Below are positions 4,185 to 31,011 of a stretch of 64,000 bases of DNA, one piece after another (positions within the stretch are counted from its first letter, which is position 1; each line of letters starts with the position of its first letter). Source of the DNA: an uncultured Bacillaceae bacterium (GTDB taxonomy: Bacteria; Bacillota; Bacilli; Caldalkalibacillales; Caldalkalibacillaceae); contig CALBTX010000114.1 in NCBI GenBank assembly GCA_937967685.1, forward strand, positions 5,570 through 69,569. Reading direction: 5' to 3'. The notes beneath the pieces were generated by a model. That model had not been told where the DNA came from. It did no database searches and was given only the letters and a program-made list of their open reading frames with translations. A program made the position numbers and the translations under genes.

Positions 4185-4373
4185 ACCTAGACACATCGGT
4201 CTTTACCTTAAAAATCGATGTCCTTTACGATCCTTCTGTCCCCGTTCAAGCGGTTGACTCGAGGCAGAATACTCGTCAAAAAAGAACGATGCAGTTTTCA
4301 AATGAACGGCATGATGGCCGGTATGGTTCCTTAACGGATACCATCCGCTTTTCATTATATCAGAAATAAGATG

Positions 4374-16920: not shown

Positions 16921-18006
16921 CTATTCGCCAAAAAAATTCCCTGCTTTTTTCCGGACATAGTGCCGCTCTGATTGAGCATGGACGCCGATTTGAATGAGAC
17001 CTAAATGCAGAAGCATTTGAATGATTCTTTCCCGAAAAATCGTCGGGACATCATCATAATAGTAACTTGAGATCCACGGAGAGATGGCATTGTAAAGCTT
17101 GTCAGTGGATATCCACTGCTGCAAAAGAACGGCATTCATCCAGTGAACAAGAAAAGGCAATGTCGGGAGAGGTTTGCCATACGTCTTCAGCCAGTAATGA
17201 AAACAGTCTTTTTGCTGCACTCGAAATAAAAGGGACGGATCAGTGAGCTTTGCATGCCCTGCCTCAGTGATATCAAGCCCGCCGGGCTCCTCTCGAATCC
17301 AGCCTCGGTCATAACTGAAGTCATAGATGAAGGCAAATCGGTTCGGGTAGAAAGGAAACCGTCTGCCATATCCAAAACGCCACGGTCGTCCTTCCACCAA
17401 TTGTTCCGCAACGCGCAATTTCTTCATTAACTGGTGTTGAAATCGCTTATGGAGCACACCTTCTTTCGTCAGTGGCGGACGCTTCTCGGCCACGAAGTGT
17501 AACCATGTTTTTAAATCATGCAGGAGAGACCGTTCTTCGTCTCTCACTGTCAGCCGGGCGGGTTCCGCATCAGGCAGATCGAATGCCCTTTGCCAAGCGC
17601 GAATGAACTGTTGCTGCAGAAACGGCCTGAAATCTTCCGGAATCTCATATTGAATGTGAAATTTGGTAGAGACAGGAAAAAGCCAGCCACTGTGGACGAG
17701 GCGAGCGATCCATGCCTTCGGTGAACCTTTTAAATCAAGCAGCTTTTGGATCAATGTTCCTTTCCCCATTAATTCTTCCAAACTGAACCAAGCTTTCGGC
17801 TGGAAAAGCAAATACGTCATCACATAAAAAATTTCTCGATCCAGTGTGGCAAACAAACGTTCATAGTTTCCGCTGTCTAGCATTTCATAATGAATGGTTT
17901 GGACAAGGTCAAGCTTGGAATGACGGTTGCAATCGCAGGCATAACGACCGGCGATTGCCCTCAAATCGGCCACATCTAGGTTCAGCAGATATTCCGATAG
18001 TTTCAT
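16921..18006 (-). CDS. Uncharacterised 361-aa soluble protein inserted between ypiB and ypiA
   Basis: Long ORF in the operon orientation. I recognised no motif. It is rich in W/F/Y and basic residues. Confidence 0.75.
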   Translation of the reverse strand: MKLSEYLLNLDVADLRAIAGRYACDCNRHSKLDLVQTIHYEMLDSGNYERLFATLDREIFYVMTYLLFQPKAWFSLEELMGKGTLIQKLLDLKGSPKAWIARLVHSGWLFPVSTKFHIQYEIPEDFRPFLQQQFIRAWQRAFDLPDAEPARLTVRDEERSLLHDLKTWLHFVAEKRPPLTKEGVLHKRFQHQLMKKLRVAEQLVEGRPWRFGYGRRFPFYPNRFAFIYDFSYDRGWIREEPGGLDITEAGHAKLTDPSLLFRVQQKDCFHYWLKTYGKPLPTLPFLVHWMNAVLLQQWISTDKLYNAISPWISSYYYDDVPTIFRERIIQMLLHLGLIQIGVHAQSERHYVRKKAGNFFGE

Positions 18007-19413: not shown

Positions 19414-20343
19414 TCAGTTCCTGTCTGATTCGGTGTCATCCAAGCGGCTCTTAAATTCTTCCGCGGCACTGTACCCTTGCTGCATCAAATACCAGTTGTT
19501 CGCCGCCGCTTCGATGAGGCCGGCCACATCGCGGCCGGGTTGAAGCTGAATTTGAATATGGGGAATGCGAACATCCATATATTCGATATATTTCGATTCA
19601 AGTTCCAACTCATTGTTCAGAGAGTCTTTTTCCCATTTCGTCAGCTCGATGTCAAGGGCGATGCGCGTCTCGTCCTGAAACGCTTTTCTGCCGTATAAAC
19701 GAACGACATTTAACAAGCCGACACTGCGCAAGGCGAGAAATTCTTTATTGACTTCATTATGTGTTCCCAACAGGGTTTGGGGGCTCAGTTTTTTAAGAAC
19801 AACGATATCATCGGCCACAAGCCTGTGTCCCCGACCGATCAGCGTATGCGCTGTTTCGCTTTTGCCCACACCTGATTTGCCCCTGACTAATACGCCCAAC
19901 CCGGACACGTTGACACAAACGCCATGCACGGCAATTTCCGGGGCCAACTCTTTAGCCAAATAAGTATCAATCATGGCGATAAATTCGGCTGTCGATTGCT
20001 GGGTAAGCAGCAAAGGGATCCCTTCCTGCTCACAAAATTGGGTTAAATAAGTCAAGCCTTCTTGACCAGCGGTCACGATAAAACAGGGCGGATGATATTT
20101 GACAATATTGCCGATGCGCAGTTTGCGCTCTTCAACACTTAACTGATGCAAGAAGCTGATTTCTTTTTGGCCCAGTATTTGCACCCTTTCCATTGGAAAG
20201 AAATCAAAATAGCCGATAAACTCCAAACCCGGCCGGTGAGTCTTGGTCTTTTTGATCGTTCGCCGGAGATGATGGCTTGCTGCAAGCACTTGTAATGAAA
20301 ATTTTTTAACCAAATTCCCTACAGTAATTGATTTTTCATCCAT
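19414..20343 (-). CDS. hprK: HPr kinase/phosphorylase
   Basis: GKSGVGKSE P-loop, GHRLVADD signature and PGRDVAGLIEAAA C-terminal motif. ATG at 20343 (MDEKSITVG...). Confidence 0.9.
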   Translation of the reverse strand: MDEKSITVGNLVKKFSLQVLAASHHLRRTIKKTKTHRPGLEFIGYFDFFPMERVQILGQKEISFLHQLSVEERKLRIGNIVKYHPPCFIVTAGQEGLTYLTQFCEQEGIPLLLTQQSTAEFIAMIDTYLAKELAPEIAVHGVCVNVSGLGVLVRGKSGVGKSETAHTLIGRGHRLVADDIVVLKKLSPQTLLGTHNEVNKEFLALRSVGLLNVVRLYGRKAFQDETRIALDIELTKWEKDSLNNELELESKYIEYMDVRIPHIQIQLQPGRDVAGLIEAAANNWYLMQQGYSAAEEFKSRLDDTESDRN

Positions 20344-20383
20344 CGTCTTTCTTCCCTTCGTCAACATCACATCTACCATTGTA

Positions 20384-20432
20384 AATAAAAAAACCGCATA
20401 TTGCACCCCTTGTAAAGGCTTACAATATACGG
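20384..20432 (-). terminator. Strong intrinsic terminator inside the hprK 5' leader
   Basis: On the minus strand: CCGTATATTG-(19 nt with an inner CCTT/AAGG helix)-CAATATGCGG followed by TTTTTTT. It ends about 40 nt before the hprK ATG. Confidence 0.8.
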
Positions 20433-20493
20433 CACGGCTATAAAACCGAATATCTAAATGGATAGGAGTGGAGAGAAACCATACTGTATCTCT

Positions 20494-20521
20494 ATTATAG
20501 CCCCTCCACTCACTATGTCAA
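20494..20521 (-). promoter_or_regulatory. Near-consensus sigma-A promoter (TTGACA-16-TATAAT) with an upstream A-tract
   Basis: Minus strand reads aaaaaatagTTGACAtagtgagtggaggggcTATAATaga. Confidence 0.65.
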
Positions 20522-20604
20522 CTATTTTTTTAACATTTATTTGATTTTAACATTTAAAAGACGCTGTTCATCAAATGCCTGCGCGCCTGTTCAACCGATC
20601 ACGC

Positions 20605-21948
20605 TTATCTGAACTGTACTTGAACGCCTAATGAGGCCAATATGGAGAAGAACGTCGGGCATGTTTTCGATACGCAACCGGGATCGGAAATGCGCACGCC
20701 CGGTATTTTCGTTCCCAACAGAGCGAAGACCATCGCCTGGCGATGATCGTCATGAGGATCCAGAAGCGTTCCTTGCAGACGATTTCCCGGCCGAATTTCA
20801 AACCCATCGGCAAACTCCTGGACATTTGCTCCCAATCGTTTCAACGCTTCACAAATGACCGCAATCCGGTCTGATTCATGTTTCCTAATATGAGGCACGT
20901 TGTACACCCTGATGGGTCCGTCGGCAAATGGAGCCAGAGCGGCGAGCGTGATGGCTTGATCAGACATGGGTTTCATATCCACTGCAAATCCCCCGCGCAA
21001 CTTTTCCGGGCCGGTCACTTGCAAGAAATGCTCCCCCTTTTCACACCGACACCCCATTTTTTCCAATACATCGATAAATTTGGCATCAGGTTGCGCAGAA
21101 TGATAACCGACATTCGTAATGCGTATCGTACCGCCGGTCAAAGCCGCCAAACTTAAGAAATAACAAGCCGTGGAGGCATCTGCCTCAAGCGTTAATCGCC
21201 GCCCGGCATATCCCGTCGGGTAAACCGTGAATGCTTCCATTTGGCCGAAACGTTCCACTTTGGCGCCGAATTGCTCCATCAGTTGCAACGTGATTTCGAT
21301 ATAAGAAGGCTGAACCAAACCGTTTGTCACCCGAATATTGACCGGACCTTGCGCATAACTGCTGGCCATTAAGAGGCCGCTTAAAAATTGGCTGGAAACA
21401 TTTCCGGCAATCTGGACCTGCCCCCCCTTCAGCGTTTGACCAGACACTTTAAGAGGCAGTCCCCGATGATCCGTGACATATTCAATCTCGGCGCCGAGTT
21501 CTCTTAAAGCTTGTATTAACGGCTCCAAAGGGCGATTTCTCAACTGGTCCGTTCCGTCCACAAGCCAGCTTCCTTCCGGGCTGACCGCCAAAGCACCGGG
21601 CAAAAATCGGGCGATCGTACCCGCCGAACCAATAAACAGTTCGCCGTTTCGATTCTGCCATCGTCCGGCACAACCTTCAAGCCGCACTTGATCATCGTTA
21701 ATTTCAGTGGTGATCCCCAACCTTTTCAAAGCATCTAGGCACCAATAGGAATCATCACTTTTCAAGATGCCGTTGAGAATGGACTCTCCTCTGGCCAGCG
21801 CCGCAATCAACAAAGCGCGGTTCGTGTAGCTTTTCGAACCCGGGATTTGCAGGCTCCCATGGACGGGCTTGGTCACGGGGGTGATTTCGACCAGCTCTTT
21901 ATCGACGGCGCCAGCCCAGGGAGACCTCGAACTGACAGGCTGTGACAA
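20605..21948 (-). CDS. aroA: 3-phosphoshikimate 1-carboxyvinyltransferase (EPSP synthase)
   Basis: PGSKSYTNRALLIAAL motif. Sits at the position of B. subtilis aroE. Confidence 0.95.
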   Translation of the reverse strand: MSQPVSSRSPWAGAVDKELVEITPVTKPVHGSLQIPGSKSYTNRALLIAALARGESILNGILKSDDSYWCLDALKRLGITTEINDDQVRLEGCAGRWQNRNGELFIGSAGTIARFLPGALAVSPEGSWLVDGTDQLRNRPLEPLIQALRELGAEIEYVTDHRGLPLKVSGQTLKGGQVQIAGNVSSQFLSGLLMASSYAQGPVNIRVTNGLVQPSYIEITLQLMEQFGAKVERFGQMEAFTVYPTGYAGRRLTLEADASTACYFLSLAALTGGTIRITNVGYHSAQPDAKFIDVLEKMGCRCEKGEHFLQVTGPEKLRGGFAVDMKPMSDQAITLAALAPFADGPIRVYNVPHIRKHESDRIAVICEALKRLGANVQEFADGFEIRPGNRLQGTLLDPHDDHRQAMVFALLGTKIPGVRISDPGCVSKTCPTFFSILASLGVQVQFR

Positions 21949-25148: not shown

Positions 25149-25190
25149 ACATGCTCCACTCCTTTTTAAATATTTAAATAATGATCAGTC

Positions 25191-30861: not shown

Positions 30862-30941
30862 CGCATGTTTCCTTGAAGACATACTTCAAACTTGGGACGA
30901 TCTGCAGTCGTTGCTTTGACCGTCTCAAGTAGAAAGACGTT

Positions 30942-31011
30942 CTCCTGCTAGGCTCTCCTCTGCTCAACTCTCTCCACTTTGCTAAACTCTACTCATGCTT
31001 TAATGCAACTC
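30942..31011 (-). promoter_or_regulatory. TRAP (MtrB) binding site: array of about 11 (G/U)AG triplets in the trp leader RNA
   Basis: Minus-strand RNA reads GAG..AAG cau GAG ua GAG uu UAG caaagug GAG a GAG uu GAG ca GAG ga GAG cc UAG cag GAG. mtrB is present at 40177-40401. Confidence 0.85.

Follow-up and report, generated by a model that had tools for sequence, protein, structure and literature searches.

We report that the intergenic region ahead of hprK in a 64-kb stretch of DNA from an uncultured Bacillaceae bacterium (contig CALBTX010000114.1; "the window" refers to this full stretch) carries a compact minus-strand unit, window positions 20387-20521, which consists of a promoter, a pyrimidine-rich core, hairpins and an intrinsic terminator, and which is kept across many families of the class. 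The explanation that we consider probable is that the unit is an independent small RNA (sRNA) gene, whose product would act in trans by occluding Shine-Dalgarno (SD) sequences and which would be catabolite repressed in most lineages. The original prediction, made from the sequence of the window, had proposed either a stand-alone RNA of about 100 nt or a conditional attenuator of hprK with a competing antiterminator; the comparative data support the former, the promoter-core-hairpin-terminator unit being conserved, and argue against the latter.

According to the favoured explanation, a very strong sigma-A promoter would drive a transcript of about 100 nt, from around 20487 to the hairpin-U7 terminator, and its functional part would be the 5' segment (A)CAGUAUGGUUUCUCUCCACUCCUAUCC, which is invariant, rich in pyrimidines and for the most part single-stranded; P2, a stabilising hairpin, and the terminator come after it. 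The RNA would base-pair in trans with GGAUAGGAGUGGAGAGAAACCAUA-like regions encompassing the SD sequence, the spacer and the start codon, and the ribosome-binding sites of a set of mRNAs would thereby be occluded, with lower translation or stability as the outcome. In lineages that bear catabolite-responsive elements (cre sites) the gene would be CcpA-repressed, so that the RNA would be made once preferred sugars run out.

The features of the unit, all on the minus strand, are listed in Table 1. As predicted, an A-tract (A7 at 20531-20525) precedes TTGACA-16-TATAAT; the promoter matches the consensus at 12 of 12 positions and is the sole perfect TTGACA-N16-18-TATAAT in the window, where 0.02 are expected by chance. 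The terminator hairpin with its U7 tract was likewise recovered, and its distance to hprK, originally given as about 40 nt, is 44 nt from the U run to the ATG at 20343. The 113-nt stretch folds with a minimum free energy (MFE) of -28.4 kcal/mol (z = -2.95 against shuffles), and the core is mostly unpaired in the MFE structure.

Table 1. Positions of the sRNA unit and its flanking genes in the window
Feature	Position	Strand	Basis and remarks
aroA (EPSP, i.e., 5-enolpyruvylshikimate-3-phosphate, synthase), upstream neighbour and conserved positional partner	20605..21948	-	Pfam EPSP_synthase, synteny
AT-rich, UP-element-like region	20522..20560	-	Sequence; upstream of the -35 box; contains the A7 tract
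-35 hexamer TTGACA	20516..20521	-	Sequence, promoter scan
"Anti-seed" GAGTGGAGGGG in the promoter spacer, complementary to the core (CUCUCCACUC)	20501..20511	-	Sequence
-10 hexamer TATAAT	20494..20499	-	Sequence, promoter scan; 16-nt spacer from -35
Predicted transcription start, A, 7 nt after the -10 box	20487	-	Inferred from promoter geometry
Invariant 5' core ACAGUAUGGUUUCUCUCCACUCCUAUCC, CU-rich, anti-SD-like putative seed	20460..20487	-	BLAST identity, column conservation
P2 hairpin CGGUU-UUAU-AGCCG	20435..20448	-	MFE
Terminator hairpin, arms CCGUAUAUUG / CAAUAUGCGG, 12-13 bp in MFE	20393..20433	-	Sequence, MFE
cre-like palindrome TTGTAAGCCTTTACA, terminator top, central CG changed to CC	20411..20425	-	One mismatch to WTGNAANCGNWNNCW
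U7 tract, predicted 3' end of the ~100-nt RNA	20387..20393	-	Sequence
hprK, 309 aa (HPr kinase/phosphorylase), outside the conserved unit	19414..20343	-	Pfam Hpr_kinase_N and Hpr_kinase_C

For the comparison with relatives, window positions 20340-20610 were used as BLAST query against 60 related genomes (61 class genomes including the window's own), and a species scan was performed with the exact 20-nt core pattern and one genome per species, which returned at least 120 loci. The counts given below are over 143, 145 or 147 loci, or over 105 non-redundant members. BLAST detected the unit in 28 of the 61 sampled class genomes and in 18 of the 32 sampled families, with hits that are 93-100% identical over one short stretch, the core. 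At least 120 named species, spread over at least six families, contain the core pattern, and all listed matches are from Bacillales. Carriers are found in Paenibacillus, Cohnella, Brevibacillus, Aneurinibacillus, Ammoniphilus, Halalkalibacter, Shouchella, Alkalihalobacillus, Pseudalkalibacillus, Marinococcus, Alteribacillus, Fictibacillus, Geomicrobium, Caldalkalibacillus and Candidatus Carbobacillus, and among the Thermoactinomycetaceae in Salinithrix, Melghirimyces, Laceyella, Marininema and Thermoactinomyces.

In the shared layout, TTGACA comes after AT-rich DNA and is separated by about 17 nt from TATAAT, and (A)CAGUAUGGUUUCUCUCCACUCCUAUCC begins 6-7 nt later; past the core the sequence differs by lineage yet closes with a GC-rich hairpin followed by a U run. 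Phased A/T tracts recur at the same upstream place across the sRNA family according to column statistics. Conservation extends to bases outside the search pattern, the four before it (92-99%) and the one after it (94%; 143 loci), and at 127 of the 143 loci an A is found 7 nt past the -10 box, where the start is expected. As for an independent gene, the -35 and -10 boxes, the A at +1, the core, the hairpins and the U run stand at fixed geometry in these 143 loci. The RNA is predicted to be about 100 nt long in the window, with a family median of 83 nt (range 54-148), and the gene is single-copy.

Two Paenibacillus loci carry a second, partial core copy on the same strand, i.e., …CTCTCCACTCCTATC… about +260 past the core in P. 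luteus (L068) and CTCTCCACTCC about +294 past the core in P. puldeungensis (L056), which may be decayed tandem duplicates. Moreover, the sRNA locus in a record titled Priestia sp. FSL H7-0729 (L047) is near-identical to those of Paenibacillus L012, L119 and L148, and this contig may be mislabelled or a contaminant. No phage-borne copies were detected among the viral contigs searched with the core.

For the RNA structure, each sequence was folded individually and compared with its shuffled versions; with a plain MAFFT alignment as input, RNAalifold did not recover P2 and P3, owing to indels. Downstream of the core, 85 of the 105 non-redundant members fold into P2 plus the terminator and 18 into the terminator alone, the median z for this part being -4.1 with 96% of the members below -2, and the last stem ends 0-2 nt ahead of the U run in 99 of 105. 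The P2 region by itself has a median z of -2.2, and its free energy (dG) is -3 or lower in 88%. Among the closest relatives P2 is maintained through compensatory changes (CGGUU/AGCCG in the window, and UCGAC/GUCGA, AUCGAC/GUCGAU and ACGAC/GUCGU). A further stem, P1 (GUAUGG/CCAUAC and variants), would close the core into a 17-nt loop, and covarying extensions of it occur at some loci, e.g. L079, L127, L131 and L136. Since P1 is weak and detectable in only about 45% of the members, the core is best described, on the basis of these folds, as single-stranded or weakly looped. Taken as a putative seed, the core is both conserved and mostly unpaired in the MFE structure, and its closing stem is weak.

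These comparisons bear on two further claims of the original prediction. The proposed antiterminator can indeed form in the window, with GAUAUUCGG and CCGUAUAUU pairing at 8 of 9 positions across 13 nt; however, its arm overlaps P2, it has no counterpart in the closest relatives, where the compensatory changes keep P2 and not the antiterminator, and the MFE structure places CGG of this region in P2 (20448-20435) instead. The 14-codon leader ORF (MVSLHSYPFRYSVL) is also present in the window and is not conserved as an ORF in relatives. That the unit instead encodes a micro-protein starting MVSLHSYP is extremely unlikely: the ATG within GUAUGG is widely conserved and is followed by an ORF of 8-14 or more codons, but there is no SD sequence, the ATG lies just 5 nt from the predicted 5' end and is lost in L025, L027, L029 and L054, and both the length and the C-terminus of the ORF vary, with 8 codons in several relatives and an open end in others. 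Moreover, the third positions of the codons are no less invariant than the other two, which indicates constraint at the level of RNA rather than of coding.

The genomic context was analysed using tblastn with the window proteins over 147 loci. Among the 147 loci listed, the position of the unit is constant in that it always borders the hisC-tyrA-aroA block at the 3' end of the latter. It follows directly behind a co-oriented tyrA (56 loci), aroA (39) or hisC (3), 98 loci in total, and is placed tail-to-tail with tyrA (10) or aroA (8) at another 18 loci, where the convergent orientation means that it cannot be part of the hisC-tyrA-aroA transcript. On the other side no such constancy is seen; the downstream ORFs fall into 34 unrelated clusters, and 36 of the neighbours are on the opposite strand. 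The largest downstream cluster encodes a co-oriented extracytoplasmic function (ECF) sigma factor of about 200 aa, located 136-370 nt away at 47 of 123 loci (L002, L005, L033 and 44 others) in Paenibacillus, Cohnella and Caldalkalibacillus, and a search of its start region for complementarity to the sRNA found none. hprK lies downstream at one of the 147 loci, that of the window genome, and in the other two genomes of the same family (L003 and L006) a YpiA-like tetratricopeptide repeat gene directly follows the unit. On the favoured explanation, hprK was inserted behind an ancestral sRNA gene in this genome and merely landed downstream of its terminator.

The diversity of the downstream genes and the single occurrence of hprK do not fit a cis-acting leader, and that a choice between terminator and antiterminator tunes hprK transcription to a signal we therefore regard as very unlikely. 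The arrangement in the window does resemble T-box, riboswitch and RAT/LicT-type leaders, i.e., a promoter, a structured leader and an intrinsic terminator followed by a gene; the terminator precedes the hprK ATG closely, with no good sigma-A-like promoter detected in between, and the alternative pairing exists in the window sequence. In contrast to such leaders, however, neither an alternative pairing nor a downstream gene is conserved with the unit, no riboswitch, T-box or other leader family matches it, it is convergent with its neighbour in some lineages, and the ribosome-binding site of hprK, considered also as a target of the RNA, is not complementary to the core (74th percentile). Because no good promoter separates the terminator from the hprK ATG, leaky terminator read-through could contribute to hprK expression here, as a by-product of the sRNA gene rather than as a sensor.

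The constant position behind the aromatic amino-acid genes raises a different alternative, namely that the unit is only the end of the hisC-tyrA-aroA operon, a conserved 3' untranslated region with terminator or a DNA-level element, and that its promoter is incidental. In the window no other terminator was found between the aroA stop (20605) and that of the unit, which therefore probably doubles as the end of the aroA transcript, and in the clade of the window an anti-seed within the promoter spacer would pair with the core in read-through transcripts. This anti-seed (GGAGTGGAGAG-like) is present in five of the six members of the clade (the window, L002, L003, L004 and L006), and in an aroA read-through transcript the helix between anti-seed and core is calculated at -17.6 to -24.5 kcal/mol versus -3 to -6 without the anti-seed; one possibility is that it would mask the seed in read-through mRNA. 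Lineages without the anti-seed carry a cre site at that spacer position. Nevertheless, an operon end does not account for near-consensus -35 and -10 boxes and an A at +1 at fixed distance from the core in nearly all of the 143 loci, for the 18 convergent loci, or for Brevibacillus (L007/L072), where the upstream gene has its own terminator ahead of the sRNA promoter, and we consider this alternative, too, very unlikely.

The predicted link to catabolite control comes from the cre sites, which were scanned for with the consensus WTGNAANCGNWNNCW of Miwa et al. and compared with the numbers expected from shuffles. Within 70 nt upstream of the core, 80 of 145 loci have a full cre (0.1 expected); in 20 of 145 (0.3 expected) a full match lies in transcribed sequence, in most cases where the terminator hairpin has its top. 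In all, 97 of 145 loci have one in the promoter or in the transcribed part. Most promoter sites are located in the spacer between -35 and -10 in Paenibacillus and Cohnella, e.g. TTGACAAAATGAAAACGTATACATATAAT, and these promoters often have a second box, with one mismatch, over the -35. Elsewhere the site covers the -35 on the other strand (Marinococcus) or is located at -56 (Ammoniphilus and relatives) or -41 (L008). Carriers of a cre in the transcribed region include Brevibacillus, Fictibacillus, Guptibacillus, Alteribacillus and Halalkalibacter, cre-type palindromes in the terminator loop are found, e.g., in L007, L063, L079, L101 and L131, and several further lineages have versions with one mismatch. 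Related sequences are not independent in these counts; however, that positions and orientations differ among lineages argues, at the level of sequence, for repeated maintenance of CcpA control, whether by operator or by roadblock. A consensus cre is a property of the family and not of the window copy, and the CC(C) variant at the terminator top, TTGTAAGCCTTTACA in the window, is kept in the clade of the window (L002-L006) and in three other lineages (L017, L019 and L023); this palindrome may serve CcpA as a roadblock, bind another regulator of the LacI type or act as a motif at the RNA level.

How the RNA might act is suggested by its core, which is complementary to GGAUAGGAGUGGAGAGAAACCAUA, i.e., to a pair of SD-like blocks with a spacer and an AUG-like triplet; by analogy with RsaI, RoxS/RsaE and further sRNAs of Gram-positive bacteria, this suggests occlusion of ribosome-binding sites, and we infer the pairing mechanism from the character of the sequence together with this analogy. 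Candidate targets were compared between the window genome and 2.42 Mb (66%) of a second carrier genome (G007). The latter has perfect matches of 14, 13 and 12 nt on three ribosome-binding sites, those of an Opp/Dpp-type permease gene (oppB-like), the NiFe-hydrogenase small subunit and a Crp/Fnr regulator; the number expected for matches of at least 12 nt is about 0.08, an expectation that ignores SD composition. The functions of the top hits are heterogeneous and include, in addition to these three, PfkA, LysA, 3-deoxy-D-arabino-heptulosonate 7-phosphate (DAHP) synthase, GH130, a glycosyltransferase, an ECF sigma factor and a fumarylacetoacetate (FAA) hydrolase.

Several observations weigh against an independent, SD-pairing and catabolite-repressed sRNA. 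In the window genome the longest perfect match to a ribosome-binding site is 11 nt (the glycosyltransferase and the ECF sigma factor), which is near chance, and orthologous pairs among the top sites of the window genome and the part of G007 are not enriched (1, 5 and 16 observed vs 0.5, 3.8 and 14.5 expected). Any CUCC-containing RNA would seem to match SD sequences, and the class-wide invariance over 20-28 nt exceeds what a seed with several targets typically needs and may point to a protein or another conserved partner. In addition, the consensus scan found no canonical cre in the window's own unit, the P1 stem is weak, and the existence, ends and abundance of the transcript are all predicted from sequence.

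Because the invariance of the core is so extreme, the main rival to the sRNA explanation is a protein-binding or decoy RNA, in which a conserved RNA-binding protein would recognise the core with high affinity, or the core would mimic the anti-SD tail of 16S rRNA and titrate a factor or SD sequences globally, rather than guide the RNA to a few specific mRNAs. We regard this as possible, though on balance unlikely. Invariance of 20-28 nt across 18 families exceeds that of usual seeds, CCACUCCUAUC is similar to the 3'-terminal anti-SD tail of 16S rRNA (CACCUCCUUUC), no conserved mRNA target emerged from the two-genome comparison, and ncr1015 of B. subtilis, which is possibly related (see below), is weakly enriched with Hfq (2.35-fold; Dambach et al. 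2013, PMC3574147). However, no candidate protein is known, the RNA has no GGA (CsrA-type) motif, and the long perfect ribosome-binding-site matches in G007 are of the kind that a pairing RNA would show; pairing and protein binding can also coexist.

Other partners were considered and rejected. Pairing with rRNA does not explain the invariance, as matches to 16S, 23S or 5S rRNA reach at most 7 nt within a carrier genome's rrn operon and the duplex energies are no better than background; no 16S or 23S rRNA gene was found in the window's own assembly (G000, 258 contigs, 96.9% complete by markers). For targets in cis, no recurrent complementary site was found among the neighbours within the 8-kb loci. 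Matches of 10 nt each were seen at the ribosome-binding site of trpA (AAGGAGUGGAG) and in the trp leader (AGUGGAGAGA) of the window, a length that is at chance level. As to these two regions, the trpA site AAAAAGGAGUGGAGCAUG, complementary to 10 core nt, is located at the end of the trpB-trpA spacer (window 25154-25163, minus strand), and the trp leader (around 30930-31010, minus strand) has GAG/UAG triplets 2-3 nt apart (…GAGUAGAGUUUAGCAAAGUGGAGAGAGUUGAGCAGAGGAGAGCCUAG…) and, from its sequence, looks like a TRAP-binding attenuator.

With respect to known systems, the original prediction had not recognised a T-box, S-box or other known riboswitch class, and this agrees with our scan; Rfam 15 gave no match at gathering level for the window element or for 19 homologous loci. 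At E ≤ 10 the window element had chance-level matches only (trpB, 18.3 bits vs 59; BtsR1, 13.4 bits vs 66), and neither a tRNA nor a transfer-messenger RNA (tmRNA) identity was found. Since the sRNA is absent from Rfam, genome annotations currently miss its gene. The core, in DNA or RNA letters, had no match in the literature searched, and only RosA, RsaI, SR1 and ncr1015 emerged as related items. Considering its breadth, its core, the linkage to the aro cluster and the cre sites, the family appears to be undescribed.

To our knowledge few Gram-positive regulatory RNAs are conserved beyond the genus, with RoxS/RsaE as the usual example. RoxS/RsaE is the one well-known sRNA with wide conservation in Bacillales; it is short, has a terminator and pairs through pyrimidine-rich motifs with the SD sequences of mRNAs for central metabolism. 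The motifs of RoxS are repeated CCCC/UCCC, and its control is by Rex/ResD. The present family resembles it in its wide conservation in Bacillales, its pyrimidine-rich, putatively SD-pairing motif and its short length with a terminator, but has a single CU-rich block of 20-28 nt with another sequence as core, and the Rfam model of RsaE gave no match. RsaI (RsaOG) of S. aureus is a stand-alone sRNA that is repressed by CcpA via a promoter cre and pairs with SD regions through an unpaired C/U-rich stretch (PMC8216469; bioRxiv 10.1101/278127). The family described here likewise has a promoter cre in most lineages and a CU-rich single-stranded core; in contrast to RsaI, its control by CcpA is only predicted, it is about half the size, lacks G-tracks for sponging sRNAs and shows no sequence or model similarity, and while RsaI is confined to Staphylococcus the family is present in Paenibacillaceae, Thermoactinomycetaceae, alkaliphilic Bacillaceae and others. 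RosA (S345) and SR1 of B. subtilis are also CcpA-repressed regulatory RNAs (PMC8216469, PMC3526287), but neither is of the same size as the present RNA or shares its core sequence, RosA being a 225-nt G-rich sponge and SR1 a 205-nt dual-function RNA that encodes SR1P.

The fourth item, ncr1015 of B. subtilis, is an uncharacterised candidate sRNA of 75-120 nt from the pps-xynA spacer (about 2,054,012-2,054,086 in strain 168), validated by Northern analysis, for which BLAST hits in Brevibacillus and Paenibacillus were reported (Irnov et al. 2010, PMC2965217). Compared by description only, it matches the present family in size and in this unusual distribution, yet its gene lies between pps and xynA and not next to aroE. 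Because a BLAST hit over such a phylogenetic distance needs an invariant block, ncr1015 may be a member of the family, and we give about an even chance to its being a relocated B. subtilis copy, again as compared by description only.

A broader version of the sRNA explanation, which we offer as a tentative suggestion, is that the RNA is a second class-wide regulatory RNA of Bacillales beside RoxS/RsaE, catabolite-controlled and anti-SD-like, with a core frozen throughout the history of Paenibacillaceae, Thermoactinomycetaceae and part of Bacillaceae, and that it would link carbon signalling by CcpA and HPr kinase to the translation of a conserved regulon. If this is true, the freezing of the core would reflect recognition of the whole translation-initiation region (two SD-like blocks, spacer and start codon) or a conserved protein partner, and the position of hprK right behind the sRNA gene in the window would hint at a functional link with carbon signalling. 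Independently of this version, a short RNA with so conserved a core, driven from one of the strongest possible promoters and placed in most of the species under a predicted CcpA operator, would give carbon catabolite control a widespread post-transcriptional arm in Bacillales of soil and industry (e.g., Paenibacillus, Brevibacillus and alkaliphilic bacilli); it is directly testable in cultivable carriers. For the window itself, the supposed riboregulator of hprK is removed, and the intergenic region would be explained as an ancestral sRNA gene.

Finally, two observations on other parts of the window may be added. Its only gathering-level Rfam match is a pan motif (RF01749) at 4232-4347 on the minus strand, with 45.4 bits versus a threshold of 36.2. 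At 16921-18006, also on the minus strand, a 361-aa ORF without Pfam match is located between the ypiA-like and ypiB-like genes; homologues of it adjoin the sRNA locus in L013, L014 and L016, which marks it as a conserved unknown of this neighbourhood.

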